Of a stretch of 64,000 nucleotides of DNA, positions 21,995 through 39,136 are shown piece after piece (within the stretch, counting starts at the first letter, position 1; each line of letters begins with the position of its first letter). The position numbers were made by a program, and so were the translations under genes. Location: contig OY769902.1 of the NCBI GenBank assembly GCA_963669175.1, positions 2,144,001-2,208,000 on the forward strand. The letters run 5' to 3'. Below the pieces are notes generated by a model. It was not told the origin of the DNA. It was given only the letters and a program-made list of their open reading frames with translations, and ran no database searches. Source of the DNA: a bacterium. Lineage in GTDB: Bacteria; Electryoneota; Electryoneia; Electryoneales; Electryoneaceae.

Positions 21995-21995
21995 G

Positions 21996-23036
21996 CTATC
22001 CTCCGAATACTTTTTTGTTCATCTTCTCCACGATAGAGGCCGTATGTGCTTCGCTGAGGTGCGAGTAGCGTTTTACCATCTGAAGTGTTTTATGTCCGAG
22101 AATCTCGGCAATCTCTGCCAGTGTCGCCCCGTTCATGGCGAGATAGCTTGCAGCACTGTGACGGAGATCGTGGTAACGAAAGTCCTTTATCTTGGCTTTC
22201 TTGACAGCCCAACGCCATGCAGAGCGGAAGTCCATAGGCTTCTGAGGGTTCTGACCCGGAAAAACAAGGTCAGTGTCCAGACGTCTCGCCAGCATTTTCT
22301 CCTGCATGAGTTCAAGTGCTTTCCCCTTCAATGGTAAAACACGAGTCTCGCCGTTCTTAGTATCGTACAATACGATAACCTCACGTCCCAAGTCTACCTG
22401 ATCCCACTTCATTCCCCAAATTTCCATCTTCCGGGCACCTGTTGACAGTGCCAGCATGACAACCGCGTACAAGTCTGGATTGGTACTTTCCTGACAGGCT
22501 TTCAATAGATTCGCCCGTTCTGTATCGCTGAGGAACCGTATACGTCCCCGAGGTTCAGTCAACTTGGATACTTTACGGAAAGGATTTTCGTCAACCCACT
22601 CCCACTCCTTCATGGCAACCGTGAAAGCGTGGGACAATACGGCAAGGTAACGGTTCACTGTTGCGGGAGAACGTCCCCCGTCCTTCATCTTGTCTCGGTG
22701 TTCTACTATCAATGCAGGGGTCACATCGGCAAGCCTGTAACTGCCTATCTGTTCATCCCACCAAGTAAGCTGTTGTTTCTGATCCTGACCTCGTTTCTTC
22801 TGAGGGATGATCTCCTTGTTGTACCGCTTGATAAGTTCGCTGAGGGTATGTTTCTTCGCTTCAGACTGCTTGAAGTAACGTCCCTCCTTGATTGCGGCCT
22901 CGGTACGTGTTGCCCAATCCCTTGCATCGGTCAACCGCTCAAAGGTTGCGGTCTCCGTGGGATAACCGCGAAGCCTTACTTTAACCCGAACACGTTTTTT
23001 CCCGTCCTGGGTAACTCGTTCTTCAAATGTCGCCAT
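21996..23036 (-). CDS. int: Tyrosine recombinase/integrase
   Basis: TGARKME, TKNG, RYHDLRH, LGHK, RYSH catalytic R-K-H-R-H-Y set; GGAGG RBS before ATG 23036. Confidence 0.95.
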   Translation of the reverse strand: MATFEERVTQDGKKRVRVKVRLRGYPTETATFERLTDARDWATRTEAAIKEGRYFKQSEAKKHTLSELIKRYNKEIIPQKKRGQDQKQQLTWWDEQIGSYRLADVTPALIVEHRDKMKDGGRSPATVNRYLAVLSHAFTVAMKEWEWVDENPFRKVSKLTEPRGRIRFLSDTERANLLKACQESTNPDLYAVVMLALSTGARKMEIWGMKWDQVDLGREVIVLYDTKNGETRVLPLKGKALELMQEKMLARRLDTDLVFPGQNPQKPMDFRSAWRWAVKKAKIKDFRYHDLRHSAASYLAMNGATLAEIAEILGHKTLQMVKRYSHLSEAHTASIVEKMNKKVFGG

Positions 23037-23350
23037 GATAACCTCCCGTGAATTGGTAGCAACAAGGTACAACAGGAGGCGAAAACAGGCAACACCTGAC
23101 TAATAATCAGTGAGAGTTGTGCCGTAACAGTATGTAATATCAATTAATTAAAACCAACAGGAGAGCCATATGGGACACTACAGGGGCAATCGTGGGGCAA
23201 AAATGGGACAATTCAAAGGGGATAGAGGGGAGGTCGTGGGGCAATGCTGGTGGAGAAGTGTTGTGAATTGCTTTTTTTAGATGTCCCACCAGTGTCCCAT
23301 TTACAGAGAAAGGGGTTAGGCTTCTAACCTAACCCCTTAGAAAAACAATG

Positions 23351-23424
23351 TCGGAGCGACTGGATTTGAACCAGCGACCCCCTGACCCCCAGTCAGGTGC
23401 GCTACCGGGCTGCGCCACGCTCCG
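23351..23424 (-). tRNA. tRNA-Pro (GGG)
   Basis: Acceptor stem CGGAGCG/CGCTCCG, anticodon arm CCTGA-CTGGGGG-TCAGG, T-loop GGTTCAAATCC; CCA not encoded. Confidence 0.95.
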
Positions 23425-24244: not shown

Positions 24245-25471
24245 TTATTCATACCTGAGTGCGACAATGGGGTCCATACGGCTGGCTTTCCATGCCGGCC
24301 AGGTTCCGAAGATCAGCCCGACTGCGCTGCAGAATACGATGCCGGTGACAATAGTCCAGACCGGAATGGCAATCGGCAGATCTACCGAGTTGCCAAGCAG
24401 GTAGGCCGCGCCGATACCGATGCCAACGCCAACCATCGCGCCCAGTTCAGTCAGGATGACAGCTTCCAGCAGGAACTGGCCCATAATACTGGCGCGTCGT
24501 GCGCCCAGCGCTTTTCGCACTCCGATCTCACGGGTACGTTCCGTAACCGCGACCAGCATGATGTTCATGATCCCCACGCCTGCGACCAGCAATGAAATAG
24601 ACGCGATTCCAAACGCGGCGAACTGTATCCAACGTGTCATATCGTTAAAGGTCTCAATGAGCTGGTTGGAATAGAAGATGCCGAAATTATTCTCTTCTCC
24701 GGGTTTCAGACCACGCGCCACACGCATGGCAGCGATAGCCTGCTCGATCGCTTCGTCTATCCGTTCGGGATTCTGCACACGGACAGTAATATTCCAGCTT
24801 CGTTCGCTGCCCCACCAGTTGATAAAGGTTTTGATCGGTACGAGGACAAAATTGGAATAATGATCAGCGCCCATCATGGAACCCTTTTCCTCAAGGATGC
24901 CCACGACCAGCGCACGTTGACCATTGAGGAAAACATAGTCGCCAATCGGGTCGCGGTAGGGGAAAAGCTTGCTCGCGACTGCGCTGCCGAGAACACATAC
25001 CGGGCGGCCAAACTGTACATCCTGTTCGGTCAGGTCGCGTCCGCGTTCAATATTCTGGCCATTGTTAAATACAAATCCCGGAACTCCTCCAGCGATCTGG
25101 ATGTTTGCATTGGTAGCCTGGTTTTCGAATTTGACGGTGGCGCCCCATTTCCAGATCTCTTCAGCGACCACCGAAGCAAGGGATACATTCTCTTCAATCG
25201 CCCGGACTTCCTTCTGTCCAATCTTGGGTCGGAATTCGCGGCGCCGATGCCCGCCATCGCCAATCTGCACGTCATAGAGCTGAACTTGGAAAACGCCGGT
25301 GGAAAGCCCCTGCATCTCCGAATTGATCATATTCTGCAACCCCTTGATAATAGACATGGTGGCGATGATTGTCATCACGCCAATGACCACGCCCAACAGG
25401 GTTAAACTGCTGCGCAGAATATTCGAGCGTATGCTGGCGACCGAGACCGCTAATGCTTCTCCCATGTGCAT
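24245..25471 (-). CDS. ABC transporter permease, MacB/FtsX family
   Basis: 'GVGIMNIMLVAVTERTREIGVRKALGA...DPIVALRYE'. Confidence 0.92.
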   Translation of the reverse strand: MHMGEALAVSVASIRSNILRSSLTLLGVVIGVMTIIATMSIIKGLQNMINSEMQGLSTGVFQVQLYDVQIGDGGHRRREFRPKIGQKEVRAIEENVSLASVVAEEIWKWGATVKFENQATNANIQIAGGVPGFVFNNGQNIERGRDLTEQDVQFGRPVCVLGSAVASKLFPYRDPIGDYVFLNGQRALVVGILEEKGSMMGADHYSNFVLVPIKTFINWWGSERSWNITVRVQNPERIDEAIEQAIAAMRVARGLKPGEENNFGIFYSNQLIETFNDMTRWIQFAAFGIASISLLVAGVGIMNIMLVAVTERTREIGVRKALGARRASIMGQFLLEAVILTELGAMVGVGIGIGAAYLLGNSVDLPIAIPVWTIVTGIVFCSAVGLIFGTWPAWKASRMDPIVALRYE

Positions 25472-25474
25472 GGC

Positions 25475-26698
25475 TTACTCCTGTCGCAAGGCGGTTATCG
25501 GGTCCATACGTGAGGCCCGGAATGCTGGGAATAAACCGAAAATCAATCCAACCACCGCAGAGAAAAGCATGGCGGATAACGCGAGCCAGATTGGCAATGA
25601 AGTCGGGAGGGAGCTTTTCATCGCCTGCCCTCCGGCAGCAGCCAGGAGAATGCCGATCACACCTCCAGACGCACAAATGGTCATGGCTTCGACCAGGAAT
25701 TGCCACAGGATGTGGTAGTTCTTCGCGCCAACAGCCTTGCGCATGCCGATCTCCCAGGTCCGTTCGGTCACGGAAACCAGCATGATATTCATGATACCAA
25801 TGCCGCCGACCAGCAGGCTGATCCCACCGATGACAACACCTGCGCCATACACTCCGGCTGTTATCCTCTTATAAAAGTCCATCAACATGCTTTGCTCGTT
25901 GATGGCGAAATTGTCTTCTTCGGAAGGTGTCAGGTTGCGTGAGCGTCGCATAATTCCGGTAAGCTCATCTTTCAACGCTTCAACATCTCCGCCTTCGTAT
26001 CCCATGACACAAATGGTGACCCCACGACGGAATCCATAATTATCCATCATGGTCGATAGCGGGATCAGGATGTTGTTGTCATTGGATTCGCCAAAAGAGG
26101 TACCTTTCTCTTCCAACACACCGACTACTTTGAAGTTGAAAGCGCCGATACGAATATCTCTGCCCACCGGGTCAAAGGGTTCGAAGAACTGTTCGGCTAT
26201 TTCAGACCCGATCACGCAAACTTTTCGTGAAGTGCGTATGTCGGTTTGGGTGATGAAGCGTCCTGTCTCGGGAATAAAGTCGCTGGTAATAGCAAATTCC
26301 GGCGTGCATCCCACGATGCCGACACCGTCCGAGGTCTTGTCCCGGAACGCGATCGGACGAACGGTCCAGGAATAGGCAGCAACAGACTCGGCCAGATCGG
26401 CCTGCTCTTTCACTGCTTCGAAATTTTCCATGGTCAGGCGGGGACGGTTGCGATAACGCCACCAATCATCCATGATGATCCAGGGAAATTGCTCAATGTA
26501 GACGGTCCGGCTGCCGATAAAGGCAATCTGTTGAGCAAAGGATTTGTTCAATCCCTGTATGATCATCAGCATCAATGTCACAGTGACGACACCGATGACG
26601 ATACCAAGCGTGGTGAGGATGGTTCGGGTTTTGTTCGCTTTCAATGCTCGAAACGCAATGCGTAACCCTTCGAGCAAAGTGCTGAAGAACAGTTTCAT
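25475..26698 (-). CDS. ABC transporter permease, MacB/FtsX family
   Basis: 'GGIGIMNIMLVSVTERTWEIGMRKAVGA...DPITALRQE'; start uncertain (26698 or 26755). Confidence 0.9.
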   Translation of the reverse strand: MKLFFSTLLEGLRIAFRALKANKTRTILTTLGIVIGVVTVTLMLMIIQGLNKSFAQQIAFIGSRTVYIEQFPWIIMDDWWRYRNRPRLTMENFEAVKEQADLAESVAAYSWTVRPIAFRDKTSDGVGIVGCTPEFAITSDFIPETGRFITQTDIRTSRKVCVIGSEIAEQFFEPFDPVGRDIRIGAFNFKVVGVLEEKGTSFGESNDNNILIPLSTMMDNYGFRRGVTICVMGYEGGDVEALKDELTGIMRRSRNLTPSEEDNFAINEQSMLMDFYKRITAGVYGAGVVIGGISLLVGGIGIMNIMLVSVTERTWEIGMRKAVGAKNYHILWQFLVEAMTICASGGVIGILLAAAGGQAMKSSLPTSLPIWLALSAMLFSAVVGLIFGLFPAFRASRMDPITALRQE

Positions 26699-27089
26699 CA
26701 AATAACCCCGGCTCTCTCTGGTCGACTCTTGCCACCCTTTTCGGATGTAATTCACTCTCTTTAGACGTAGCGTTGTGGGGCAAAGTTACATCAGGTGTTG
26801 TAAACTGCCACACTATACAACTGCGTCATGGTGTTGAAATTTCAAAGGTTGAAAAAAAGTGAAATATCTTCAAAAACATTTCGATTTTATTCTGCAAATT
26901 ACATACCTTTCAAAGAATTGGTGAGGTGGAATGGGCCACATGAATATGGGTTTTCATGGATAAAACCCCGCGCAACAGGTGTAAAGATATCATCAGAGTA
27001 ATCAGTATGGTAAGTCTAACTCTTGCGCGACAGAGCTTTCTTCATCTATACTTGAGCAATTGTGAATTTATCAGGAGAGGAGGTGCTAC

Positions 27090-27998
27090 TTGAGTAATAA
27101 TCGCCTGAATATTGATTTGCACGGAGTAACATTCGCTGTTGATAAAGGCGCTTCCCTGATGGAACGTCAAATTCGATGGGACAAGAGCATCCAGCCCTTT
27201 TACAAGAAGAACATTGACGATGTGGATGTTCAAATTACCCTGGGAGAGCGGGAAAGCGGCGACCTCCGGATTGATGGTGAATTGCAGGAAGAATCGGATG
27301 GGTGGCAGTTTTATCACTCTGATCAAACGGGCTGGGATTGCATTAAAAAACGGAGCAAGCCGTTGGAAGAGCTTGAAGGTGAGCAGGATCATTCTCCGTA
27401 TTCATCACGTTTAAAAATCACCAATGACATGAAAAATGTAGAAGCCTATTTCCATGTTCATGACAGGCATAAACACACTGCATGCGGGTGGAGAAATATG
27501 GATTTGTTATTTCTTTCGCTCTATTTCCCTTTCCGTAAGCGCCTGCTGTTTCATTCCAGCGCAGTATCGCTTGATGGGAACGGCTACCTTTTTATCGGGG
27601 AATCCGGATCAGGAAAGTCGACCATCGCGCGTCAGTTTCAAGATGCCGGAGCGATTGTGTTAAGCGATGAACGTAATGTTACTTACGTCGAAAATGGTCA
27701 GCCGTTTGTTCATGGCACGTGGTTGCACAGTGATTTTCTGGCAAACTCTGACCTGCTGGTTCCCTTGAAAGGCATCTTTCTCCTGAATCAGGCGGAAGAG
27801 AACCAGGTCGTCAGGATAGCATCGTTGCAAGAGAAGTATTTTCACCTGCTTCGTTTTGTGACTCGTCAATTGACGCCGCCATATTGGTGGGAAAACACGC
27901 TCGCACAGATTGAACGACTAAACCTGTTTGCTTCCATGTACAACCTGTCATTTGATTTGAGCGGCGCCATTGTGACAGAGGTCAGAAAGCTGACGTAA
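27090..27998 (+). CDS. HprK-related P-loop kinase-like RiPP-cluster protein (ScmC-like)
   Basis: FHSSAV...G.LFIGESGSGKST...LSDE motif; AGGAGG RBS, TTG start. Confidence 0.8.
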   Translation: MSNNRLNIDLHGVTFAVDKGASLMERQIRWDKSIQPFYKKNIDDVDVQITLGERESGDLRIDGELQEESDGWQFYHSDQTGWDCIKKRSKPLEELEGEQDHSPYSSRLKITNDMKNVEAYFHVHDRHKHTACGWRNMDLLFLSLYFPFRKRLLFHSSAVSLDGNGYLFIGESGSGKSTIARQFQDAGAIVLSDERNVTYVENGQPFVHGTWLHSDFLANSDLLVPLKGIFLLNQAEENQVVRIASLQEKYFHLLRFVTRQLTPPYWWENTLAQIERLNLFASMYNLSFDLSGAIVTEVRKLT

Positions 27999-29248
27999 TG
28001 ACAGTCATAAAAAGCAAGTATGTGCAGGAAGCTTCTGCAGTGGAGTTTCTCAATAACCTGATGAATAAGGGAAAACTAGGCCGGTTGTCGTTTGAACTTA
28101 CACGCAGGTGCAACTTTAATTGTAGACACTGTTATACAAACCAGCCGGCTGGAAGCCGGGAAGAACGTACACAGGAATTATCAACTTCAAAGATTCTAAG
28201 CCTGTTGGAGGAAGCGGAAGCAATAGGCTGCCAGACGATTCAGATGACAGGCGGCGAACCGCTGTTACGTCAGGATTTTGCCACTATCTATAAACGTACC
28301 AGACAGTTGGGAATGAATGTCTCGCTTTCAACAAATGCAGCCTTGATAACGAAAGAACTGGCAGATCTTTTTGCGCAATACCCGCCGGGTGATGGTATAC
28401 TGGTATCTATCTATGGTCTTAGTGATGAGGAATATGAAAAGACGACCGGGCAAAAGGGGGGATTGGACAAGGTAAAACGTGGTCTCAAGTTGCTTAAGGA
28501 AAGAAACATTCAGGTTTCTATAAGGGCAAACCTGCTGGATCCACAGCCTGGTTTGGAGCAGGAGTTTCAGGCATTTGTACGTGAATTCACCCATGATGAA
28601 GAGACGCCCGTCAACTGGCCGATGAAATTATCACTGAGACAATACCATGATTCAGACGAGGCGAATGATCGAATCAAAAATCTCAGGTTTTCCGGGAAAG
28701 AATGGGTTCAACGTGCGATCCAGGAAAACCCTGACTACTTTTTTGTAGAGATGGGCGCCGCACTTTGCAGGCTGAGCGGGATCAGCGGGAATAAACCATT
28801 TGTATGTCAGGCTGGAATCAAGTTAGGGGCTGTTTCGTATGATGGCATGTACAAACCTTGCATGGTGTTTGGCAAATCTGATTTTGACATTGATCTGCGT
28901 GAACATACCCTGGCAGAAGCCGTTGCGATGACCAGGGAAAGGATGCTGACACTTACCAGTCAACATCCGAACTTTGAAAAGCAATGCGCACGATGTTTCC
29001 TGCGGGCAAACTGTAAATCCTGTCCGGGGCGCAGTGATGCAGAACATGGAAAGTTTGATCAGCCTGTTGACTATTTTTGTGAACTTGCACATGAAGAGGC
29101 TAGGTACTTTAATCTGTTGGGGCCGGATGAAAAAGCCTGGGAAATTGCAGATTGGCGCACACGTATAGAAGCCCTGCGAAACAGGTTGGTCGAGAAAGGT
29201 GTTGATTACCGGAGTACCATTCCTAGAGGAGAAAAAGGCGATGAGTGA
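27998..29248 (+). CDS. Radical SAM/SPASM peptide maturase 1
   Basis: CNFNCRHC, TGGEPL, SPASM Cys CQAG...PC...CARC.....CKSCPG...FC. Confidence 0.93.
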   Translation: MTVIKSKYVQEASAVEFLNNLMNKGKLGRLSFELTRRCNFNCRHCYTNQPAGSREERTQELSTSKILSLLEEAEAIGCQTIQMTGGEPLLRQDFATIYKRTRQLGMNVSLSTNAALITKELADLFAQYPPGDGILVSIYGLSDEEYEKTTGQKGGLDKVKRGLKLLKERNIQVSIRANLLDPQPGLEQEFQAFVREFTHDEETPVNWPMKLSLRQYHDSDEANDRIKNLRFSGKEWVQRAIQENPDYFFVEMGAALCRLSGISGNKPFVCQAGIKLGAVSYDGMYKPCMVFGKSDFDIDLREHTLAEAVAMTRERMLTLTSQHPNFEKQCARCFLRANCKSCPGRSDAEHGKFDQPVDYFCELAHEEARYFNLLGPDEKAWEIADWRTRIEALRNRLVEKGVDYRSTIPRGEKGDE

Positions 29249-29543
29249 TAGCATGTTGAACAAAACATATGGTCCTAATGGGGAAATAGTGGCGCGTGAA
29301 GTTGAAGGCGAATTTCTGCTGGTGCCAATCAAGGCGGGAGTGGGTGAGATTGAAGAAGCCTTATACGCGTTAAACGAAACCGGAAAAAGTATCTGGCAGA
29401 AACTGGATGGATCACGTTCTGTGGAGCAGGCAATTCAGGAACTTGCGCAGGAATATGGCGCTGAGCCGGACCTGATCGAAGAAGATGTTCTCGGACTTCT
29501 GGAAGCGCTTCTTGAAAAACACCTTCTGGTTGAGAAAGCCTGA
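29241..29543 (+). CDS. PqqD-family RiPP recognition element (RRE)
   Basis: REVEGEFLLVP...LNETG..IW..LDG...LAQEY...DV..LL..L; AGGAG RBS. Confidence 0.92.
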   Translation: MSDSMLNKTYGPNGEIVAREVEGEFLLVPIKAGVGEIEEALYALNETGKSIWQKLDGSRSVEQAIQELAQEYGAEPDLIEEDVLGLLEALLEKHLLVEKA

Positions 29544-29548
29544 TCCAC

Positions 29549-30043
29549 ATGTCGCATCGCCATGTCCGGAATCAAACGGGTCGGATAATCACTTTTACTG
29601 CTGCGGTTGGGGTGATACGTGCTGTTCTCGAGAAAGACAGGGAATTTCACTTGACTGCACGTGGCAACAGCATGTCACCTTTCATCAAACCTGCTGATAT
29701 CATAACCCTGAGTAGTTATAACGGAACCTCTCCTGAAGTCGGTGATATCGTTGCAGTTTATCTTCCCCGAAAGAAGATGTTGATTGTACACCGGTTGATA
29801 GCCAGGCATCCGAATGGTTTCGTGATGGCTGGCGACAATTCATTCAGGATGGATGGGCTGGTACGGAATCAGGAGATCGTTGGGAAAGTAACTGAGGTGC
29901 AACGCAACGGACACAGGAAAAAGACAGGTGTTGAAACCTATACCAGGACAATTGCCTGGGCGCGTAGACAATCCCTGCGTGGAAAGGGGGGCCAAATCGT
30001 GTGGCGAGGGATGCTTCAAGTTGCAAAGAAGGTTTTAGCATGA
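29549..30043 (+). CDS. S24/S26-family peptidase
   Basis: GNSMSPFI (catalytic Ser), GDIV, IVHRL, GDN motifs. Confidence 0.85.
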   Translation: MSHRHVRNQTGRIITFTAAVGVIRAVLEKDREFHLTARGNSMSPFIKPADIITLSSYNGTSPEVGDIVAVYLPRKKMLIVHRLIARHPNGFVMAGDNSFRMDGLVRNQEIVGKVTEVQRNGHRKKTGVETYTRTIAWARRQSLRGKGGQIVWRGMLQVAKKVLA

Positions 30044-31161
30044 GTGAAAGCAAATACCTGAGCATCCCAAGTCAGGACGACAAGGAAAACGAGCTCCTGC
30101 TCAAGCTTGGAAAGGCTGGCAGGTTGAAGGACGTGGACATAGAGATTACCTCACGCTGTAATCTCCGTTGCAGACACTGTTATATCAAGGAGGCCGGCAA
30201 CAATCAACAGGCAAAAGATCGTGAGCTATCAGTAGAACAATGGCATGATATTATGCGCCAGGTTGCTGCAATGGGCGCTCTGAATTGCACAATTACCGGG
30301 GGCGATCCCCTGTTGCGAAAGGATTTCAAAGAGCTGTACCTGATGCTGAAACGGGAAGGGTTCCTGATAACAGTGTATTCGAATCTTACGTTGCTATCAG
30401 ATAAGCTATTCAAGCTGTTCGAAGAGTATCCGCCCATGTTACTGGAATCAACTGTTTATGGTGTGTCGGACGCTACTTATTCTCGTGTCACAGGAATCGC
30501 AGGCGCTTTCACCAGGTTCAAACAGAATGTCGAACGTATCAGGCAAGCCGGGATTCCCCTGGGATTAAAAGCAATGTTGCTCCACTCCAACCTTTGTGAA
30601 GCAGAAGCAATTGTTGACTATTGTATTGCGAACAGCGATGAACCACCGCGCTTTGACGCTGCGTTGGTGCTTCGACATGATGGTGATGCAGGGCTGAATG
30701 CTGTAATTCGGGATGAGCGGCTAACCGGCGAAGAAATTGTTAGCATCTTCGAACAAAGTCCTACGATAGCTTCGAATCTGGATTCTTTTTTCGAGACAGG
30801 TCGAAAAGCGAAAGACTACTTGGGCAAAGAGGTCCTTTTTACCTGTAGTGCTGGTATCGCCAGCGCGACAATCGGAGCTGATGGGATAATGCGTCCATGC
30901 AGCCTGCTGGTTCATCCTGACTACCTGTTCGATTTGAAAAAAATGCCGGTTCATGAAGCATTCAGACAATTACAGCAAAAAGTCAGGAACAGCAAAGTGG
31001 CTTCGCCGGAGCTTTATCCTTGTTCAACGTGCGAGTTGCGTGGGGCGTGTATGACCTGTCCAGCAATAAACTACCTGGAAACCGGGAGTCTTGAAAAAAT
31101 AGCGCCTTCTCTTTGCGACCTAAGTCACAAAGTCGTTTCTTTCAATAAAAGTAAGGCTTGA
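30040..31161 (+). CDS. Radical SAM/SPASM peptide maturase 2
   Basis: CNLRCRHC, TGGDPL, SPASM CSAG...PC...CSTC.....CMTCPA...LC; ATGA overlap start 30040. Confidence 0.93.
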   Translation: MSESKYLSIPSQDDKENELLLKLGKAGRLKDVDIEITSRCNLRCRHCYIKEAGNNQQAKDRELSVEQWHDIMRQVAAMGALNCTITGGDPLLRKDFKELYLMLKREGFLITVYSNLTLLSDKLFKLFEEYPPMLLESTVYGVSDATYSRVTGIAGAFTRFKQNVERIRQAGIPLGLKAMLLHSNLCEAEAIVDYCIANSDEPPRFDAALVLRHDGDAGLNAVIRDERLTGEEIVSIFEQSPTIASNLDSFFETGRKAKDYLGKEVLFTCSAGIASATIGADGIMRPCSLLVHPDYLFDLKKMPVHEAFRQLQQKVRNSKVASPELYPCSTCELRGACMTCPAINYLETGSLEKIAPSLCDLSHKVVSFNKSKA

Positions 31162-31233
31162 CCGGAATCATCTTCTTAGTTACCTTATTAAACCCAGTAA
31201 GGTGGCTTAAATGATTGTTTTAGTTGTTAATAG

Positions 31234-31249
31234 AGTGACGTAGATCACA
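31234..31249. promoter_or_regulatory. CRP/FNR-family-like operator upstream of the precursor gene
   Basis: AGTGA-CGTAGA-TCACA, 9/10 match to TGTGA-N6-TCACA. Confidence 0.4.
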
Positions 31250-31300
31250 AATTCAAAGTGATCATAAAGTGCAATTGCATACTGCTAAAGGAGATAGATC

Positions 31301-31450
31301 ATGAAGAAAGAGTGGAAAACCCCAGTTCTGACAGTTTTGCTGAAAGGGAAACTGGAGGGCGGATTCCTGGCTTGCCATTCCGGCGGCGCAAGTTCAGATC
31401 CGTATCATGAAGTACTCAAGTGTGCCACCCAGTTGGCATGTTCACAGTAA
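31301..31450 (+). CDS. RiPP precursor peptide MKKEWKTPVLTVLLKGKLEGGFLACHSGGASSDPYHEVLKCATQLACSQ (49 aa; absent from ORF track)
   Basis: AAGGAG RBS 7 nt before ATG; WxxPxL RRE-binding leader motif; three Cys; lies between rSAM2 and the ABC exporter. Confidence 0.85.
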   Translation: MKKEWKTPVLTVLLKGKLEGGFLACHSGGASSDPYHEVLKCATQLACSQ

Positions 31451-33231
31451 AACTGAAGCATTTTCGTTTTACATCCAGATTACTTCGTTCTACTGATCCA
31501 AAGGGTTTTTTTACCAGTTCAATCTTGTCTGTTCTACAGGGGCTCATGCCCCTTTTGTTACTCTATCTGGTGAAATTGCTGATTGATCGTCTGTCACAGG
31601 TCTTGTCAGGCAACACAGTAGATATTAATGAGATACAGGTAGTCTGGGTCGTTATCGCATTGGGAGGGGTGTCGCTTTTCCAAAGCGCACTAGCGCATAT
31701 TGCCAATTATTACAACCAGGTATTCAGCGAAAGAATGGTTGACCAGGTCCAGGACATCATTCATTCAAAATCCATAACCTTGGATGTGGAATACTATGAG
31801 AATTCTTCTTACTACAACATTCTGCATCTTGTCCAGCAGGAAGGACGCCATCGTGTAGCGCACCTTACCAGGATATACAGTAACCTGGTACTCAATACAG
31901 TTACTCTTCTGTCGATGTCGGTAGCGTTGCTTGTTGTCAGCAAGCATGTTGGCTGGATTCTTCTACTTGCCAGTTTTCCTGCTCTTTGGGTCCGATTCAA
32001 ATTTGCCGGTATTAATCATAAATGGAAGAATGACGTTGCTGAAACAGAACGGCAAGGGGAGTACCTGAATTGGTTGCTGATAAGTCCCTGGTATGCGGCT
32101 GATATCAGGATGCTGGGACTAGGCAACTATTTCAAAACAGCGTACCAGGATGTCAGAAAAAAAATCAGAACAGCGAGATTGTATATAGCATGGAAACGTT
32201 CCTGGTTCGAGTTCTTTGCAGAGGGCAGCGCTACACTGGTTGTTTTTGGATCACTTCTTGTTGTGGCTTTACGCGCAGTGAAGGGGTTGATAACACTCGG
32301 TGATACAGTTGCATTCTACCAGGCATTGCTACGTGGTGTGCAGGCTGTGCGCAATATCGTGACAGAACTTGCACAATTACATGAATCAAATCTGTTCTTG
32401 TCACATCTGGAAGAATTCCTGGAGATAGAACCGAAGTCTCCACCATGTGCGCAAACAAGAAGCGTTCTTCCAAAAATGATACATTCTATCACTCTGAAAG
32501 ATGTATCATTTGCCTATCCCAGGAGTAACCGTCTTGTTTTGGAACAGATTTCGTTCAGCATTGAACCGGGTGAATTAATCGTTGTCGTGGGGGAAAATGG
32601 TGCCGGGAAAACGACTATGGCCAAATTATTAGGCAGGTTATATGAACCGGGGGATGGTTCAGTCTGTATTAATGGGATTGACTACCGTGATTTTGATCCG
32701 GAAGAAGTGAAGAAAATGATAGCATATTTACCACAAGATTTGGCAAAATATGAAGTTAGCATTACAGAGAATGTCTGGTATGGTGATATTGATCGTCCCC
32801 GCAGGGAGGATGAGATCGACAGGGCTTTGGAGTTCGCCGGGTTGCTTGAAAGCGTGAATGCTCTCCCACAAAAAAAAGAGACCATCCTTGGCTCGTTGTT
32901 TGCAAACGGAATAAATCTGAGTGAAGGCCAATGGCGAAGGTTGGCGCTGGCACGGGCCAATTTCAGAAAGGCAGAATTTGTCATCATGGATGAACCACTG
33001 GCTGCAATTGACGCGTTGACTGAAGCTAGCCTGATTGAACAAGTGAAAGCTATGGCCAATGAAAAAGCTGTTTTATTGATAAGCCACAGGTTCTCTTTGG
33101 CGCGTCAGGCGAATAAAATTCTGGTGCTGAAGGAAGGAAAGCTCGTTGAAACAGGAACACATCAGCAGTTGATGGAACTTGGCGGGTACTATTCGCTTAT
33201 GTACAACAGGCAGGCGGGATTCTATAACTAA
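31438..33231 (+). CDS. ABC exporter, fused permease/ATPase (no C39 domain)
   Basis: N-terminal TM domain, GENGAGKTT, LSEGQWRR, IMDEP, ISHR; start overlaps the precursor stop. Confidence 0.9.
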   Translation: MFTVKLKHFRFTSRLLRSTDPKGFFTSSILSVLQGLMPLLLLYLVKLLIDRLSQVLSGNTVDINEIQVVWVVIALGGVSLFQSALAHIANYYNQVFSERMVDQVQDIIHSKSITLDVEYYENSSYYNILHLVQQEGRHRVAHLTRIYSNLVLNTVTLLSMSVALLVVSKHVGWILLLASFPALWVRFKFAGINHKWKNDVAETERQGEYLNWLLISPWYAADIRMLGLGNYFKTAYQDVRKKIRTARLYIAWKRSWFEFFAEGSATLVVFGSLLVVALRAVKGLITLGDTVAFYQALLRGVQAVRNIVTELAQLHESNLFLSHLEEFLEIEPKSPPCAQTRSVLPKMIHSITLKDVSFAYPRSNRLVLEQISFSIEPGELIVVVGENGAGKTTMAKLLGRLYEPGDGSVCINGIDYRDFDPEEVKKMIAYLPQDLAKYEVSITENVWYGDIDRPRREDEIDRALEFAGLLESVNALPQKKETILGSLFANGINLSEGQWRRLALARANFRKAEFVIMDEPLAAIDALTEASLIEQVKAMANEKAVLLISHRFSLARQANKILVLKEGKLVETGTHQQLMELGGYYSLMYNRQAGFYN

Positions 33232-33649
33232 TATAGACGGCTGATGCTGGATCGTAAGATGTTCGTCCGATGGACATGAAGTCTCGATCATTTACCCCAT
33301 GCTGAAGAGTTGAGCGCGCCTTTCACCTGTTTCATTTCAGACCAAAGCGGAAGTCCAGCACGATCTCCGATAAAAGAGGTCGGGGTGAGTTGCATAGTAG
33401 TGAAATATGTTGTATCCTTAAAAAGAGATGTAAATAATTGTAATTTATGATTTTCGGTTTATTTGGTGAGTGACTCTTTTTTCATGATTTTATTGTTTGA
33501 ATCTCTTGGTGTTGATCTAGTGCACAGAGATTTGACAGATCCTACCGTACATTCAGTATGGATGGAATGTAGGATTTTACAGTGAACATAATCCGCAATT
33601 TGCGGTTTAAGTGGTTTTGGAACAGCAACATGCTGTGAAGGAGGTTGTC

Positions 33650-36600
33650 ATGAAACGGACAATCCTGACGATAAGCTTTTTATCCTTGTTTATTGGGGTT
33701 GCATTTGCACAAAAGCCATCATTGGAAAAAGTGCAGGCAGAACTGGCCAGTTTCGAAAACTCATCGTCGCACCTGTTAGTCTATGGCGCCGGGTATTCGG
33801 GGCAGGTTGAGAACTGGTTCAGCGAACTGGATGAGTTGGATGAAGTTCTGCTGTCAGAAGATTTCTCTACCGGTATTCCCGAAACATGGACCATCACGAA
33901 CCATGCAGATGTGGGCGATCCCACCTGGGAAGCGATTTCGGATCCGGCGCTTGGCGAATTAATGTTACCATATGCCGCTATGTATCCGGAGCTATACGGT
34001 GGTGGTAATTATGCAAGCTCGTTGCTGACGCCGTCCATTAACTGTTCGGAAGTATCCTCTGTTGTTTTGACTTTCAATACAGAGTTTGCGACCATTGCGC
34101 CAGGTGTGGGCTATGAAACGGTAAAGGTAATGGTGTCGCGTGATGGTGGGGTTACATGGCCTGATACTGTTTACTCTGTTCTCAATAATTTGAGTCAATA
34201 TCCAGTTGAAGTTGACTTGTCCGAATCAGTGAGCGGATTCGCTGATGTCATTGTACGTTTTTATTATGCGGACAATGGCTTGCAGGGGCGTTACTGGGCT
34301 ATTGATGATGTCGCTATCATCGCGGATCCACCTCCTTCAGTAAGTGTTATTTCAAGCCCAATGGCAGCTTTCGACGATCAGGATGTCGAAATTGTACTTG
34401 AATCAACAGATAATTCCGGGCTTGGGTTGGATACGGATGCCATGTTTGTTTATTACGGTGAAATCGTTGGAAATTCGGTTCCCAATCCCAGCAGCGTAGC
34501 CCTTGCCGCAACGGGTGAGGAGAATGAATTCAGTGCAACGATTCCGCAAGCGGATCTGACAGCGAATGCAGATATCGGCTGGTGGATTTCCATCAGTGAT
34601 AATGCAGGCGCAGAGGCTCGACGGCCAATTACAGAGGGCGCGTATTACAGTTTCCATGTTTATCCCGGTTCATACGACTATATGACCTCACAGGTGGACT
34701 ATTTCTTTACCGATATCAGTGAGACCGGTACCGCATTAAATCTTGAAGATGATGATGTTGCCGTAATAAGTTGGGCTGGTCAAGCTGATCCATTCCCGTG
34801 GTACAGTGGTACTTTCCAGCAGTGTCGTGTATCCTCAAACGGCTGGATTTCTTTCGGTACACCAACAGATTCTTATCCATTACTTCCTCCTTTCCCGAGC
34901 TCACAGGGACCGCACAATACCATCGCTGTGGCCGGAACAGACTTGAATCCCGAAACGGGCGGGGCCATTTACTGGCAGGTACTGAATGATCGTATCATTA
35001 TCCAATATGATGCTGTTCGATTTTATAATTCCGTACAAACATTTACCGGGCAGATCGTACTGGTACCCAGCACACAGTCGGTGTTTCTGAACTATCCCAC
35101 AGCCAATACCGCGGCTTGGGCGTTCAACCACTCTGTCGGTTTTGAGAACAATGCCGGATTGATTGGGCACTCCTTTGAATATGGAACTGTCTGGAATCTC
35201 TTTAACGGTGTTGTGGATGGTACTTCATTGCTGGTCGGTGTGAATCCGGCGCACATCGAGGGGACGATAACGGATAATGAAGAGCCCCCCAGTCCACTGG
35301 AAGGGGTAGAAGTTTCTTTGACGGTCAGTGGCGATGTATTGCAGACCTGGACAGATGAAGAAGGATTCTACGGCTTTTACGATATCGTACCTGGAAACCA
35401 TACAATCCAGGCAGCTTTTGTGGATTATCTGCCGCATGGACCTCAAGCGGTAGCCCTGACAGGAGGCGATACGACCACCTACAATATTCAACTGGCGCTT
35501 GATCCTTCGGCTGATGTTGATGTTGATGGGTACATCTGGGTGCGTGATGAGGTGAATGTTACACCTGTTTCAAATGTTACTGTTTATATCCAGCTTCTTG
35601 ACCTGACGGTAACAACCAACGAGAGCGGATATTTCAATCTCGGGACGCAACCACAGGGCGTTTATACGTTCCGTCTGACCCATAATACAACCGGCTCCAA
35701 TGCTTTTCACAATGTCCGCTACCAGGGGGTGTCCGTCTCCAGTGATACGACCTTCGCCTTTGAGATGGATGAAATAATGGCGCCATCCGAAGTTGCCGCC
35801 ATCCCGGGGGAAAGGTCAGTAACTCTTTATTGGGATTTGCCAACCAACGAGCAGGACGAAGTTCTTCTGACCCGTATTCTGGACAATCGTCGTGAGGCGC
35901 TGGCTTCAGCGCAAAACGCTTCCATTTCACCCGAAAAGCTTGCCAGGTTGGAAGATGAAGTGCTTCGTTATTCAAAGGCTTTGGCAAGAGTACAGGAAAG
36001 AGCTGGCCTGAACGAGCTGGATGAGCTCGGGGTTATTGAAGGGTACATGGTAAAAATGGATGGCAGTGTTGTGAATAGCGCTGTTGTCGATACCTTCCTT
36101 GTGATTGATACACTTACCAATTTTGTCCAATATGATTTTGAAGTTGCAGTGGATTACGGATATGACAGCAATGAGTACCTTGTCTGGTCAGATCCTATTA
36201 CGGTTCAGCCGGTTTCAGGGCCACGTTACGAGCGTGATTTGCTCGATGAATTTGTCTGGTATGAATTGAACCCTGATAGTGTACAGCGTCAAGGTGTACA
36301 TGCCACGGGGCTTATTGATGACGGTTTAACCCCATGGGTCAGCATCACGCCAAACGTGTTCTCATTCTACGAAGTTGAGTATAATCGCTTCGTCATCAGT
36401 TCCAACGGATACATCAGCTTTACCAGCCTTGTGTCTTCCGTTGGTGGTTCAATCCCTGATCCAGCGCAACCGAATGCGATTATTGCTCCCTATTGGACTG
36501 ATCTTGATCCGGGATCACCGACAGAAGAAGTCTGGCACTGGTTTAACCAGACGGACAGCATTGTTGTCGTTCAATGGACAACAGGGAACAACCCCGGTCC

Positions 36601-39136
36601 GGAAATAAACCTGAAGGAATTCCAGATTATTCTGGATCTGACCGATAACAGTTTCATCATGAGTTACAAGCATGCGGAAGATGGCTGGGATATTGATCAG
36701 GGTGTTACCATCGGTGTGGAAGGGCAGGGTGGTGTTCGAGGGACAGTATGTCCGCACAGTAGCATAACGGACTACCTTTCGGTCAAGTATGAATTCTTTG
36801 ACCGGGATTTCGGGAACATTACCGGTCGCGTTACCGATGGTGAAAGTGGCGTTGCAGGCGCGTTGGTGTTTGCTTCTTATGACAGGTATGACGTGCGTGA
36901 CACGACAGATGTCGATGGTTACTACACGCTGCTTGGTGTTGATACTGCTTTCACGTATGATGTTGTTGCATGGGCTGAAAACTACGCTCCTGTCTATCAG
37001 CAGGTTTCGCCTGATGATTGGGGAGCATTCACGTTGACACTTGATGACCTGGAATTTGGTGGCGCCGGCAGCAGCCCTGGCGGTTTCAACCTGGTATCGC
37101 CTGGAAATACTTCTGCGCTTTACGATGATCACACCATTCTTGAGTGGACGGAGTCCGTTGACACTGATACGTTTGACCTGGTCCACTACTTCGTGGAATG
37201 GAGTTCAGACGTCAGCTTCGCAGAGGATGTCTATTCTGCTACGACGAATAATACTGAATACACGATCCGTGATTTGCTGGATGCATTCAACTTGAATGAC
37301 TTCATTTACTGGCGGGTGAAGGCGATTGACCTTGCTGGCAACGAAACGTGGTCGACCAATGGCGGGCAGGCAGGCTTTGTTTTCATGCTGGCGCCTTCCA
37401 CGCCACCGGATCCATTTGATCTGGTTTCACCGGCCAACGGTGCTACGACAGGCAATACGGTAAACTTCTCCTGGAATCATGCACTGGAAGATGATTACGG
37501 AGATTCGGTTGTTTACCATTTGGAGATTTCGACTTCCAACGATCCTTTCGCGGCAACCTATACGTACAACACCGGCAGTAGTGTCAGCTATACTACGGAT
37601 CAGTTGCCGGACAATACCCAATTGTGGTGGCGTGTCCTTGCACAGGATTTGAACACATCCGGAACGTATTCCAACCAGACCTGGAGTTTCAATCATCCGC
37701 CTTATTCGAGCAGCGGTAATTTCTCTGATGGTTGGAATGGATGGTACCTGTTCAGCATTCCTGCGATACCACAGGTTGGTCAGAACGATACAGCGTCAAT
37801 TATCGGTGATGACGTTACCGGTGACTACGCGGTCTATTCGGGAAATTCACCGCATCAACCGGTTGGTACATTATCCAATGGGCCGGGATACTGGCTGTGG
37901 TTGGAAAACGATGCGACGATTGATATGGCCGGTAGCCGTCGATTTGACGATTATTCCATGACGTTGGATGATGGTTGGAACACCGTCGGCGCGGCAATGT
38001 CTTACGAATACGATGTGGCTGATCTGAAGCTCACGGACGGCTCTGATACACTGACCTGGCAACAGGCAGCCAGTGAATTCTGGATCGTTCCGAGTTCAAT
38101 TGGTTACAACCCGTTCAGCGGTTCTTATGAGATTGTCTCAGAACTTGTGCCATGGAACGGTTACAGCCTGTTTGTGGTGCCAGATCCTTCCAATCCCGGG
38201 CGCGAGTTGTCATTAATAACAGAGCCAGTATTCCCGGATCTTGTAATGGCCCCGGTTACAGAGATAACAGGGATCAAGCTGGAACCCTCCGCTGAAAAGG
38301 CGAAGGGGAAGACCAGGACGACTACTGCATCAACCAAGCCAAAGAAGGAAACAGATAGCCAGAATGATGAGCTGGATACCGTAAACAACTGGTTCCTCCC
38401 GGTTGTTATCACCCAGGGTGACATGTCTGACGAGCTGGCCGGGATTGGTGTGAATCCGTTTGCTACCGATTCCATCGAAAGCAGCTATGACCTCCCGGTG
38501 CCACCGGCTCCTGCAAGCGGCAGCTATATCCGGATCATGTTCCTGCCGGATGAAATCTCAGAGACTTGGCGCGCAAGTGGTGATACCATGATGGCCAGGG
38601 ATATTCGTGAGCCCTTCGACAATACCATGCAGAAAATCTGGTATGGTTTCATTGACGGAACTGAAACGGGCATGGTTGAGCTGGACTTCAGCGCTGCTAC
38701 GGACTCACTTCCGGAACACTTTGCGGCCTATCTGAACCTGAACGGTCAATACTACAATGTCAGCAATGATCCGTTTATTCAGTTCAACAAGACGGATACG
38801 CGACATGATTTCCTGTTGACTGTTGCAGATGAAGATGCTGTCCCGATGCATGAAGAAGAAGCGTTGCCGACTGAATACGCGGTTGAATCGATTTATCCGA
38901 ACCCGTTCAACCCGATGACAACGATACAGGTGGGCCTGCCACAGGCGAGCAGCCTGCGTATCAATGTCTTCAACGTGCTTGGACAAGAGGTTGCGCAGGT
39001 GGTCAATGGACAATATGCAGCCGGACGTCACCGCTTCCTGTTCAAAGCGGAAAACCTGTCCAGCGGTGTGTATTTCGTGCATGTTTCCGCGCCCGGCAAG
39101 CTGGATACTGTCAGGAAACTGGTGCTGACGAGGTAA
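33650..39136 (+). CDS. Large secreted multidomain protein (carboxypeptidase-regulatory-like, FN3-like, nidogen-like repeats) with T9SS-type C-terminal domain
   Basis: AAGGAGG RBS, signal peptide, two 'ISSNG(W/Y)ISF...PN..IA....DL.P' domains, C-terminal YPNPFNP...SSGVYF...KLVLTR. Confidence 0.88.
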   Translation: MKRTILTISFLSLFIGVAFAQKPSLEKVQAELASFENSSSHLLVYGAGYSGQVENWFSELDELDEVLLSEDFSTGIPETWTITNHADVGDPTWEAISDPALGELMLPYAAMYPELYGGGNYASSLLTPSINCSEVSSVVLTFNTEFATIAPGVGYETVKVMVSRDGGVTWPDTVYSVLNNLSQYPVEVDLSESVSGFADVIVRFYYADNGLQGRYWAIDDVAIIADPPPSVSVISSPMAAFDDQDVEIVLESTDNSGLGLDTDAMFVYYGEIVGNSVPNPSSVALAATGEENEFSATIPQADLTANADIGWWISISDNAGAEARRPITEGAYYSFHVYPGSYDYMTSQVDYFFTDISETGTALNLEDDDVAVISWAGQADPFPWYSGTFQQCRVSSNGWISFGTPTDSYPLLPPFPSSQGPHNTIAVAGTDLNPETGGAIYWQVLNDRIIIQYDAVRFYNSVQTFTGQIVLVPSTQSVFLNYPTANTAAWAFNHSVGFENNAGLIGHSFEYGTVWNLFNGVVDGTSLLVGVNPAHIEGTITDNEEPPSPLEGVEVSLTVSGDVLQTWTDEEGFYGFYDIVPGNHTIQAAFVDYLPHGPQAVALTGGDTTTYNIQLALDPSADVDVDGYIWVRDEVNVTPVSNVTVYIQLLDLTVTTNESGYFNLGTQPQGVYTFRLTHNTTGSNAFHNVRYQGVSVSSDTTFAFEMDEIMAPSEVAAIPGERSVTLYWDLPTNEQDEVLLTRILDNRREALASAQNASISPEKLARLEDEVLRYSKALARVQERAGLNELDELGVIEGYMVKMDGSVVNSAVVDTFLVIDTLTNFVQYDFEVAVDYGYDSNEYLVWSDPITVQPVSGPRYERDLLDEFVWYELNPDSVQRQGVHATGLIDDGLTPWVSITPNVFSFYEVEYNRFVISSNGYISFTSLVSSVGGSIPDPAQPNAIIAPYWTDLDPGSPTEEVWHWFNQTDSIVVVQWTTGNNPGPEINLKEFQIILDLTDNSFIMSYKHAEDGWDIDQGVTIGVEGQGGVRGTVCPHSSITDYLSVKYEFFDRDFGNITGRVTDGESGVAGALVFASYDRYDVRDTTDVDGYYTLLGVDTAFTYDVVAWAENYAPVYQQVSPDDWGAFTLTLDDLEFGGAGSSPGGFNLVSPGNTSALYDDHTILEWTESVDTDTFDLVHYFVEWSSDVSFAEDVYSATTNNTEYTIRDLLDAFNLNDFIYWRVKAIDLAGNETWSTNGGQAGFVFMLAPSTPPDPFDLVSPANGATTGNTVNFSWNHALEDDYGDSVVYHLEISTSNDPFAATYTYNTGSSVSYTTDQLPDNTQLWWRVLAQDLNTSGTYSNQTWSFNHPPYSSSGNFSDGWNGWYLFSIPAIPQVGQNDTASIIGDDVTGDYAVYSGNSPHQPVGTLSNGPGYWLWLENDATIDMAGSRRFDDYSMTLDDGWNTVGAAMSYEYDVADLKLTDGSDTLTWQQAASEFWIVPSSIGYNPFSGSYEIVSELVPWNGYSLFVVPDPSNPGRELSLITEPVFPDLVMAPVTEITGIKLEPSAEKAKGKTRTTTASTKPKKETDSQNDELDTVNNWFLPVVITQGDMSDELAGIGVNPFATDSIESSYDLPVPPAPASGSYIRIMFLPDEISETWRASGDTMMARDIREPFDNTMQKIWYGFIDGTETGMVELDFSAATDSLPEHFAAYLNLNGQYYNVSNDPFIQFNKTDTRHDFLLTVADEDAVPMHEEEALPTEYAVESIYPNPFNPMTTIQVGLPQASSLRINVFNVLGQEVAQVVNGQYAAGRHRFLFKAENLSSGVYFVHVSAPGKLDTVRKLVLTR

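Follow-up and report, generated by a model that had tools for sequence, protein, structure and literature searches.

The operon, its precursor and the peptide family

The stretch of DNA analysed here, referred to throughout as the window, comprises 64,000 nt of a genome of the Electryoneaceae (contig OY769902.1, positions 2,144,001 to 2,208,000), which is a complete single-contig assembly of 5.4 Mb. On the + strand of the window, between positions 27090 and 33231, lie seven open reading frames (ORFs) that encode an HprK-like P-loop protein, two radical S-adenosylmethionine (rSAM) enzymes of the SPASM type, a stand-alone PqqD-family protein, an S24/S26-type peptidase, a 49-aa peptide, and an ABC exporter (Table 1). 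It is probable that these make up one operon for a peptide that is made by the ribosome and modified after translation (a RiPP) and that is exported, that the ORF at 31301-31450 encodes its precursor, and that the cluster is a divergent member of a large family. A cluster of this kind had been proposed from the DNA sequence alone (the original prediction). All seven ORFs were found as placed there, with genes that overlap or abut as in a coupled operon.

Several of the genes have alternative starts. The longest ORF for the PqqD protein begins at GTG 29199 (114 aa) and that for the second rSAM enzyme (rSAM_B) at GTG 30001 (386 aa). For the ABC exporter, ATG 31438 is the likelier start rather than GTG 31420, which gives the longest ORF (603 aa). 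The HprK-like gene and the gene for the first rSAM enzyme (rSAM_A) overlap by 1 nt; there are also overlaps of 8 nt between the rSAM_A and PqqD genes, when the latter begins at ATG 29241, and of 4 nt between the peptidase and rSAM_B genes, when rSAM_B begins at ATG 30040. The sole gap in the operon, of 139 nt, is directly before the small ORF. As predicted, this ORF has its own AAGGAG ribosome-binding site (RBS) and its 3′ end and stop codon overlap the exporter gene, which is true for either exporter start. The 139-nt spacer folds somewhat better than shuffled sequences (z -2.4); an RNA element is not claimed there, and the spacer is not conserved in a genome of the same genus.

Table 1. Features of the cluster in the window, with the basis for each assignment
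Feature	Position	Strand	Basis
HprK-like protein with the P-loop fold of phosphoenolpyruvate carboxykinase (PEPCK), ScmC-like, stand-alone, 302 aa	27090-27998	+	ORF, weak ScmC/HprK matches, fold model
Radical-SAM/SPASM enzyme, A type (rSAM_A), 416 aa	27998-29248	+	Pfam Radical_SAM, Cys motifs
Stand-alone PqqD-family leader-binding protein (RiPP recognition element, RRE), 100 aa	29241-29543	+	Pfam PqqD; ATG start from homologue alignment
S24/S26-type serine peptidase, presumed leader peptidase, 164 aa	29549-30043	+	Pfam S24/S26, Ser/His motifs
Radical-SAM/SPASM enzyme, B type (rSAM_B), 373 aa	30040-31161	+	Pfam Radical_SAM, Cys motifs
Shine-Dalgarno sequence AAGGAG	31288-31293	+	7 nt ahead of the precursor ATG
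Precursor peptide, 49 aa; leader about residues 1-24 (W5xxP8xL10), core with Cys25, Cys41, and Cys47	31301-31450	+	ORF, syntenic homologues
MsbA/HepA-like ABC exporter, permease and ATPase in one protein, no peptidase domain	31438-33231	+	Pfam

The small ORF was compared with related genomes. Homologues of rSAM_B (E ≤ 1e-20) are present in seven of 41 of these, counting the window's own genome, and in three of the 15 other genomes of the same family. Clusters of the S26/rSAM_B type were found in four related genomes, on five contigs, and on four of the five contigs a small ORF with the same leader lies downstream of rSAM_B. In the five syntenic peptides, being the window's peptide and these four, residues M1, K2, K3, P8, K17, C25, and C41 are invariant. 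When the window is aligned with the same-genus genome, the upstream spacer cannot be aligned; identity begins exactly at the RBS, takes in its spacing and the ATG, and then runs through the leader, of which 18 of 25 residues are identical by a count made by eye.

A profile built from the five peptides retrieved 36 peptides of 49-68 aa among 44 candidates. In their alignment P8 never varies and W5, L10, and C25 hardly do, which bears out the predicted WxxPxL leader motif. The window's peptide scores 88 bits on the five-peptide profile, a profile that includes it. Of the cysteines, Cys25 is nearly invariant in the 36 peptides, and both Cys25 and Cys41 are invariant in the five syntenic precursors. 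The exact 49-aa sequence occurs as a predicted protein in the protein collection; in the window's own genome there is no second copy of the precursor, the next match having an E value of 0.57.

The proposal that the small ORF is a RiPP precursor had been tied to the occurrence of a similar small ORF in homologous clusters. Such ORFs were found: the same leader occurs beside homologous enzymes in the four related genomes, in 17 genome loci, and in 80 metagenome loci. Since the leader is kept in the 36 database peptides and at about 100 syntenic loci, this is more than a chance open frame, and at the level of sequence conservation the 49-aa ORF is confirmed as a real RiPP precursor. Between the window and its same-genus relative the PqqD proteins are 70% identical, compared with 32-42% for the enzymes; the leader and its PqqD binder are thus held together while the cores and the enzymes diversify.

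The 17 genome loci come from a scan of species-representative genomes with an alignment of 13 peptides, and span about nine phyla; the taxa are Actinomycetes, Chloroflexota, Omnitrophota, Anaeromyxobacter, Planctomycetes, Calditrichaeota, Patescibacteria, Desulfobacterales, and Acidobacteria. In metagenomes, 252 stretches were matched, 91 of which encode a relative, and the best 80 of these 91 were analysed. Genes at the loci were mapped by local BLAST with the proteins of the window and of two other loci, together with the peptide profile, taking the longest open frame as the ORF and using score thresholds of our own setting. Among the 42 loci of at least 6 kb that contain a precursor, PqqD was found in 30, a B-type rSAM enzyme in 23, an HprK-like domain in 23, an A-type rSAM enzyme in 19, an S26-like peptidase in 19, and an ABC exporter in 10, all of these counts being lower bounds because many contigs end within the cluster. 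Homologous exporters adjoin precursors in other loci. At 19 of these 42 loci there is a third rSAM/SPASM protein, the K type, which is about 650 aa long and has the HprK-like domain as its C-terminal part. Likewise, six of 16 scanned database relatives of the window's HprK-like protein, of 570-680 aa, consist of an rSAM part followed by an HprK-like part.

The leader region of the family reads KKxW(E/x)KPxLxVLVRGKPEExVLxxCK. It is followed by a variable core, usually with a GP pair and three or four Cys; cores are hypervariable and some loci encode up to four different precursors. The C-terminus is much more uniform. In a first set of 56 unique peptides the final residue is Ser in 43, Thr in nine, Gln in two, Pro in one, and Leu in one, the last being an ORF cut by the end of its contig, and in 48 of the 56 the final residue stands exactly six residues past the last Cys. 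A larger set, from which ORFs outside 45-90 aa had been dropped as truncated or run-on, comprised 135 unique peptides; 120 of them end in C-x5-(S/T)-COOH and 129 have Ser or Thr as the last residue.

No NCBIfam model covers the 36 family peptides. A scan at E ≤ 10 listed seven families, and the matches include weak, leader-level ones to the models for rhodolasso (19 peptides), the SSH RaS-RiPP (13), and paeninodin (nine, best E 0.03). Protein-atlas clusters of 70-97 members resemble the family. No published description of this peptide family was found in the literature covered, which excludes subscription journals. The cluster is a member of a large and widespread family that is both unnamed and uncharacterised.

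Two variations on the usual arrangement were seen among the other loci. In one metagenome-assembled genome of Omnitrophota, a PqqD domain and a precursor share one open frame (L025:8500-9168 and L036:186-848, also L031:70-444, L032:14-412, and L035:74-385), with a long linker rich in Lys and Glu between them; the frames are longest-ORF calls only. Such a frame would encode the leader binder and its substrate as a single fusion protein. Several of these precursor copies are on separate contigs, with no rSAM gene within up to 9 kb. Elsewhere, a B-type rSAM enzyme is the only one beside the precursor, in loci L016 (G004:C12), L018 (G010:C509), and L041, where the precursors have three Cys in L016 and L018 and four in L041. 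There may thus be only a loose relation between how many rSAM genes a locus has and how many cross-links are made.

Enzymes of the cluster and related systems

Both rSAM enzymes match the Pfam Radical_SAM model (rSAM_A 93.1 bits, rSAM_B 85.8 bits). Both contain CX3CX2C, C-x13-G-x4-C, and C-x2-C-x5-C-x2-C motifs with one later Cys, which is the seven-Cys SPASM pattern, and their homologues have it too; the assignment of three [4Fe-4S] motifs to the two enzymes is at motif level. The prediction of two rSAM/SPASM enzymes stands on the Radical_SAM matches and on this full Cys pattern. In the longest ORFs the CX3CX2C motif begins at residue 38 (rSAM_A) or 53 (rSAM_B), which leaves neither enzyme room for a leader-binding domain at its N-terminus. 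Among solved structures rSAM_A is most closely related to PqqE and SkfB, at about 2e-9, and it aligns over its full length, below threshold, with the ScmF, PapB, and QhpD models. For rSAM_B the best solved relative is SkfB (8.3e-17) and the best NCBIfam match is ScmE (88.4 bits). The PapB model (NF047865, cut-off 340) gives 64.9 bits for rSAM_A and 50.3 for rSAM_B, and the StsB model (NF045574, cut-off 625) gives 90.8 and 66 bits, all below cut-off. A different SPASM enzyme, CrpC, is the subject of another report (PMC13692751), mentioned as background only.

The assignments of the PqqD protein and of the peptidase agree with those originally made. PqqD scores 63.6 bits on the Pfam PqqD model and 44.2 bits on the PqqD equivalog model, for which the cut-off is 46. 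Modelling of the complex between this RRE and the leader had been proposed as a check. When PqqD and the precursor were folded together the ipSAE was 0.47 (runs 0.46, 0.50, and 0.47), against 0.01 for the best control, with a partner pLDDT of 47-50 and a contact agreement of at least 82%. The mark that this exceeds is passed by 116 of 157 solved complexes and by two of 215 mismatched pairs, and an ipSAE of 0.60 or less is found for just 18 of those 157 solved complexes and for both of the passing mismatches. The model was taken as weak support for binding of the leader. Solved leader/RRE complexes exist, and the pass may reflect likeness to them.

The peptidase is above cut-off for both Pfam Peptidase_S24 (28.4 bits) and S26 (23.3 bits); with NCBIfam, a nickel superoxide dismutase (Ni-SOD) maturation protease and an archaeal signal peptidase I model match at about 1e-10, both below their cut-offs. 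The motifs GNSMSP, VHRL, and GDN follow one another in the window's protein, and GxSMxP, (V/I)HR, and GDN…DG are kept in 10 of 10 aligned homologues. This Ser/His arrangement is as in archaeal and endoplasmic reticulum (ER)-type S26 signal peptidases. At two other loci (L026:5699-6700 and L034:7779-8810), the S26-like peptidase ORF extends into a motif like that of GNAT acetyltransferases, as judged from alignment only, which hints at acetylation of the new N-terminus after removal of the leader; L026 is GC-rich, and the long peptidase ORF there may be spurious. The exporter scores 93.9 bits for Pfam ABC_tran and 36 bits for ABC_membrane, and MsbA/HepA-type NCBIfam models match it below their cut-offs.

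The HprK-like protein has weak matches only, to NCBIfam ScmC (40.1 bits) and to HprK_rel_B, HprK_rel_A, and HPrK (E 1.8e-5 to 3.7e-4, HPrK being 3.7e-4). In a search of 1.84 billion representative proteins, 3949 relatives were found at E ≤ 1e-3 and 240 at E ≤ 1e-10. Residues D138, H155, G170, G175, and K176 are invariant across 60 aligned sequences, and the motifs of the family are H-S-x-G, G(H)SGAGKST, and (I)LCDDR; the window's Walker A motif reads GESGSGKST. An AlphaFold2 model (pLDDT 91.2, pTM 0.89) was compared with known structures using Foldseek. Both domains align with ATP-dependent PEP carboxykinases (best E 2.6e-8, TM 0.46-0.50 on the query), and the P-loop domain also aligns with HPr kinase/phosphorylase (E 4.4e-6 to 9e-5). 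PEPCK and HPr kinase share a fold. The family call originally made for this protein is thus supported by a confident model that matches both folds, in addition to the weak sequence matches, and the protein has the appearance of a phosphotransferase that is active and ATP-dependent.

In lasso-peptide clusters, such as that of paeninodin, homologues of HPr kinase phosphorylate the linear precursor at its C-terminal Ser (PMC8498205). From this precedent and the near-universal Ser/Thr end of the family's peptides, phosphorylation of the C-terminus is the simplest guess for the family's kinase. The frequent fusion of the HprK-like domain to an rSAM enzyme suggests, from gene architecture, that the kinase and rSAM activities may act together on the C-terminal motif. 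The proposal that the kinase modifies Ser or Thr fits the 129 of 135 family peptides that end in one of these, but is weakest for the window's own peptide, which ends in Gln and has Cys47 at the usual place of the terminal residue.

A resemblance to the SynChlorMet (SCM) cassette had been noted, and with regard to architecture this is so. The two systems have in common two PqqE-like rSAM/SPASM enzymes, a stand-alone PqqD, an HprK-related P-loop protein, and a small Cys-bearing peptide, and SCM models are the best NCBIfam matches of two of the window's proteins (ScmC for the HprK-like protein and ScmE for rSAM_B). The 49-aa ORF might, in that case, be a divergent ScmA in a true SCM member. We regard this as improbable, because every score is far below its curated cut-off when the search against the Scm models that had been suggested is run. 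The ScmC model (TIGR04249) has a cut-off of 125, against 40.1 bits for the window's HprK-like protein and 31-53 bits for its relatives; the ScmD model (TIGR04248) has a cut-off of 100, against 26.5 bits for the window's PqqD. With a cut-off of 400 for each, ScmE (TIGR04250) gives 88.4 bits for rSAM_B and 67.7 for rSAM_A, and ScmF (TIGR04251) gives 71.2 bits for rSAM_A and 62.6 for rSAM_B. Ten homologous rSAM enzymes from other loci score 60-93 bits on the Scm models, likewise below the cut-offs. The ScmA model has no match among the 36 family peptides even at E ≤ 10, and the window's peptide matches no NCBIfam family at E ≤ 0.01.

All of the Scm models are thus three- to six-fold under cut-off, and the precursors differ from those of SCM in forming a family with a leader of its own and a C-x5-S/T end. 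Further features of the present family are the S26-like peptidase and, usually, the third rSAM enzyme with its fused HprK-like domain. On sequence grounds the window's cluster resembles SCM in architecture and is not a member of it. No characterised product was found in print for SCM or for this family.

Likeness to lasso-peptide systems of the paeninodin type is seen in the (Y/W)xxPxL leaders, with the weak leader-model match described above, and in the stand-alone PqqD-type leader binder, the HprK-related kinase, the ABC exporter, and, for the family rather than the window, precursors that end in Ser. There is, however, no ORF in 27090-33231 for a lasso cyclase (the asparagine-synthetase-like C protein) or for a B2 cysteine protease, and rSAM/SPASM enzymes and an S26-like peptidase are present in place of these; each of the seven ORFs is assigned to some other family. 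Of the models, ScmC fits the HprK-like protein of the window better than HprK_rel_A or HprK_rel_B does, and the window's peptide is not Ser-ending. Sactipeptide and ranthipeptide maturases (SkfB, StsB, PapB, and QhpD) are likewise seven-Cys SPASM rSAM enzymes that act on Cys-containing peptides, and the PapB, StsB, and QhpD models align with the window's rSAM enzymes over their full length but below threshold. The products of such maturases have a Cys sulfur bonded to the Cα (sactipeptides) or to the Cβ or Cγ (ranthipeptides) of an acceptor residue. Maturases of this type usually carry an N-terminal leader-binding domain of their own. Here leader binding would be on the separate PqqD protein, and no model cut-off is reached.

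In the PQQ (PqqA/D/E) and mycofactocin (MftA/B/C) systems, a stand-alone PqqD-family chaperone and an rSAM/SPASM enzyme also act on a short peptide. The same module is present in the window, the mycofactocin and PqqE models match the window's enzymes at 46-73 bits, and the WxKPxL leader presumably recalls PqqA, all of which would suit a peptide that is the precursor of an intracellular redox cofactor or signal in place of a secreted product. This is very improbable. An ABC exporter is translationally coupled to the precursor; the hypervariable cores, with up to four precursors in a locus, are typical of secreted RiPPs and not of cofactors; the presence of the cluster is patchy among relatives, at three of 15 genomes of the same family; and the operon has no gene for a cofactor-dependent enzyme. 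In contrast to PQQ and mycofactocin, the window's cluster has two rSAM enzymes, a kinase-like protein, a peptidase, an exporter, and Cys-rich cores, and has no cofactor-finishing enzymes. The cluster is a radical-SAM RiPP cluster that relies on a separate leader-binding protein.

Divergence of the window's copy and proposed maturation

The window's cluster shares with the family its leader and a conserved Cys at about residue 25, together with A-type and B-type rSAM enzymes, a stand-alone PqqD, and an S26-like peptidase that adjoin the precursor. The best local BLAST matches place its rSAM enzymes with the A and B types, at 36-41% identity to proteins of other loci. Two traits of the family have no match in the window, namely the C-x5-(S/T)-COOH end and the fusion of the HprK-like domain to a K-type rSAM enzyme. 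The cluster is a divergent, atypical member of the family. A similar departure is seen in the same-genus relative, which has the same altered leader, a stand-alone HprK-like protein, and a peptide that ends in GGGVCP and has no C-x5-(S/T) motif. The peptides of both are among the six of 135 without Ser or Thr at the end. In the window's peptide, Cys47 is at the usual place of the terminal Ser or Thr and is followed by two more residues, of which Ser48 is the penultimate and Gln the last.

A number of points weigh against the reading of the cluster as a working RiPP operon that belongs to this family. The core of the window's peptide has three Cys and ends C41-ATQLA-C47-SQ (…CATQLACSQ), with no C-x5-(S/T)-COOH; its leader has KGKLEGGFL where the family has RGKPEExVL, and His, in place of the family's Lys, follows Cys25. 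In a search with the 49-aa peptide as a single sequence, only the peptide itself was matched. The HprK-like protein stands alone (302 aa) and there is no K-type rSAM enzyme in the operon; the role of this lone kinase-like protein is the least clear, since the third rSAM domain to which HprK-like domains are fused in other loci is absent. Where the family has (I)LCDDR it has LSDER, with Glu in place of the second Asp of the DD motif. The Pfam SPASM model matches neither rSAM enzyme at E ≤ 0.01, and no enzyme of the cluster reaches the cut-off of any curated NCBIfam family model, so that the chemistry of the rSAM enzymes is drawn only from distant relatives (SkfB, PqqE, PapB, StsB, and QhpD). 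Nor is a small-residue site such as signal peptidases use evident before the conserved Cys, judging by eye from the peptide lists, in which the -1 residue is too variable.

These departures could also be those of a decaying or re-purposed remnant, in which the third rSAM enzyme was lost and the C-terminal motif drifted, and which would now be silent or make a simpler, unphosphorylated product. The window and its same-genus relative do lack the Ser/Thr end, the C-x5-S/T motif, and the K-type rSAM enzyme; in both, the HprK-like protein is stand-alone and the core is shorter and has three Cys. All seven ORFs are nevertheless intact in the window, and so are all six that fit on the 5.3-kb contig of the relative, even though the enzymes of the two are only 32-42% identical. 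The catalytic Cys, the Walker A motif, and the Ser/His motifs are kept, the RBS and leader are conserved, and the PqqD protein is 70% identical. A remnant is therefore rather unlikely, and an operon for a modified and exported peptide, from a divergent branch of the family, is preferred.

Starting from the gene identities, synteny, precursor conservation, Cys/SPASM patterns, and the kinase-like fold and motifs, all of which are observed, the following chemical steps are inferred. The stand-alone PqqD would probably bind the WxxPxL leader and present the peptide. The peptide is likely to be the substrate of both the A-type and the B-type rSAM/SPASM enzymes, each of which would install cross-links from Cys25, Cys41, and Cys47; that these are thioethers, of the sactionine or ranthionine kind, is the best single expectation, with about an even chance of being correct. 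More tentatively, the HprK/PEPCK-fold protein might act as a kinase, using ATP to modify a hydroxyl close to the C-terminus, which in this peptide would be that of Ser48, by analogy with the HPr-kinase homologues and their phosphorylation of the terminal Ser in lasso-peptide precursors; a hydroxyl other than that of Ser48 would be the alternative target. It is reasonably likely that the Ser/His S26-like peptidase removes the leader, and there is a strong expectation that the translationally coupled ABC transporter exports the product.

A bolder reading would make the family a so-far undescribed class of RiPP, distinct from SCM, in which an enzyme with the PEPCK/HPr-kinase fold is combined with radical-SAM chemistry on C-x5-(S/T)-COOH, the window being a natural variant in which that ring is closed by a different route. 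This is doubtful at present. One possibility within it is that the terminal Ser or Thr is activated with ATP and, in a coupled radical reaction, cross-linked to the Cys that lies six residues upstream. If it is true, the window's lineage, with the fused rSAM domain lost and a Cys at the place of the Ser/Thr, provides a ready-made comparison pair for the chemistry.

Both new cross-link chemistry and bioactive molecules have come in good number from peptides that rSAM enzymes modify. The present family is large, at about 100 loci in many phyla, its precursors have a sharp signature, and a kinase fold and an rSAM enzyme are often found in one polypeptide. With the precursor pinned down, the system is directly testable. 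The window's copy does not have two of the family's hallmarks and is therefore a useful contrast to the canonical members, not the best first target.

Flanking sequence

Upstream of the cluster are a MerR regulator and two MacB/FtsX permeases, on the opposite strand and unrelated to it. The permease genes are in tandem (24245-26755, - strand) and diverge from the cluster across a shared intergenic region of 334 bp; there is no ATPase gene beside them on the - strand. Downstream, 380 nt past the exporter, begins an ORF for an 1841-aa protein (33611-39136, + strand) with CarboxypepD_reg domains and a C-terminal sorting domain of the Por secretion system, which is probably a gene separate from the cluster. 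In a scan of 26600-33700, promoter-like sites were fewer than in shuffled sequences and there was no convincing terminator at the end of the operon. No clear island stands out at the cluster in GC content, which is 0.44-0.49 there and 0.45-0.53 in the surrounding DNA.

An Rfam scan of the window gave a single match, a tRNA gene at 23351-23424 (- strand, 61.7 bits), and no other. It is followed by a phage-type integrase (21996-23072, - strand, Pfam 114.5 bits) and then by a 343-aa ORF with no Pfam match, in a stretch of 29% GC (20963-23424 region). Together, the tRNA gene, the integrase, and the low-GC stretch resemble one border of a mobile element that has integrated about 4 kb away from the cluster.

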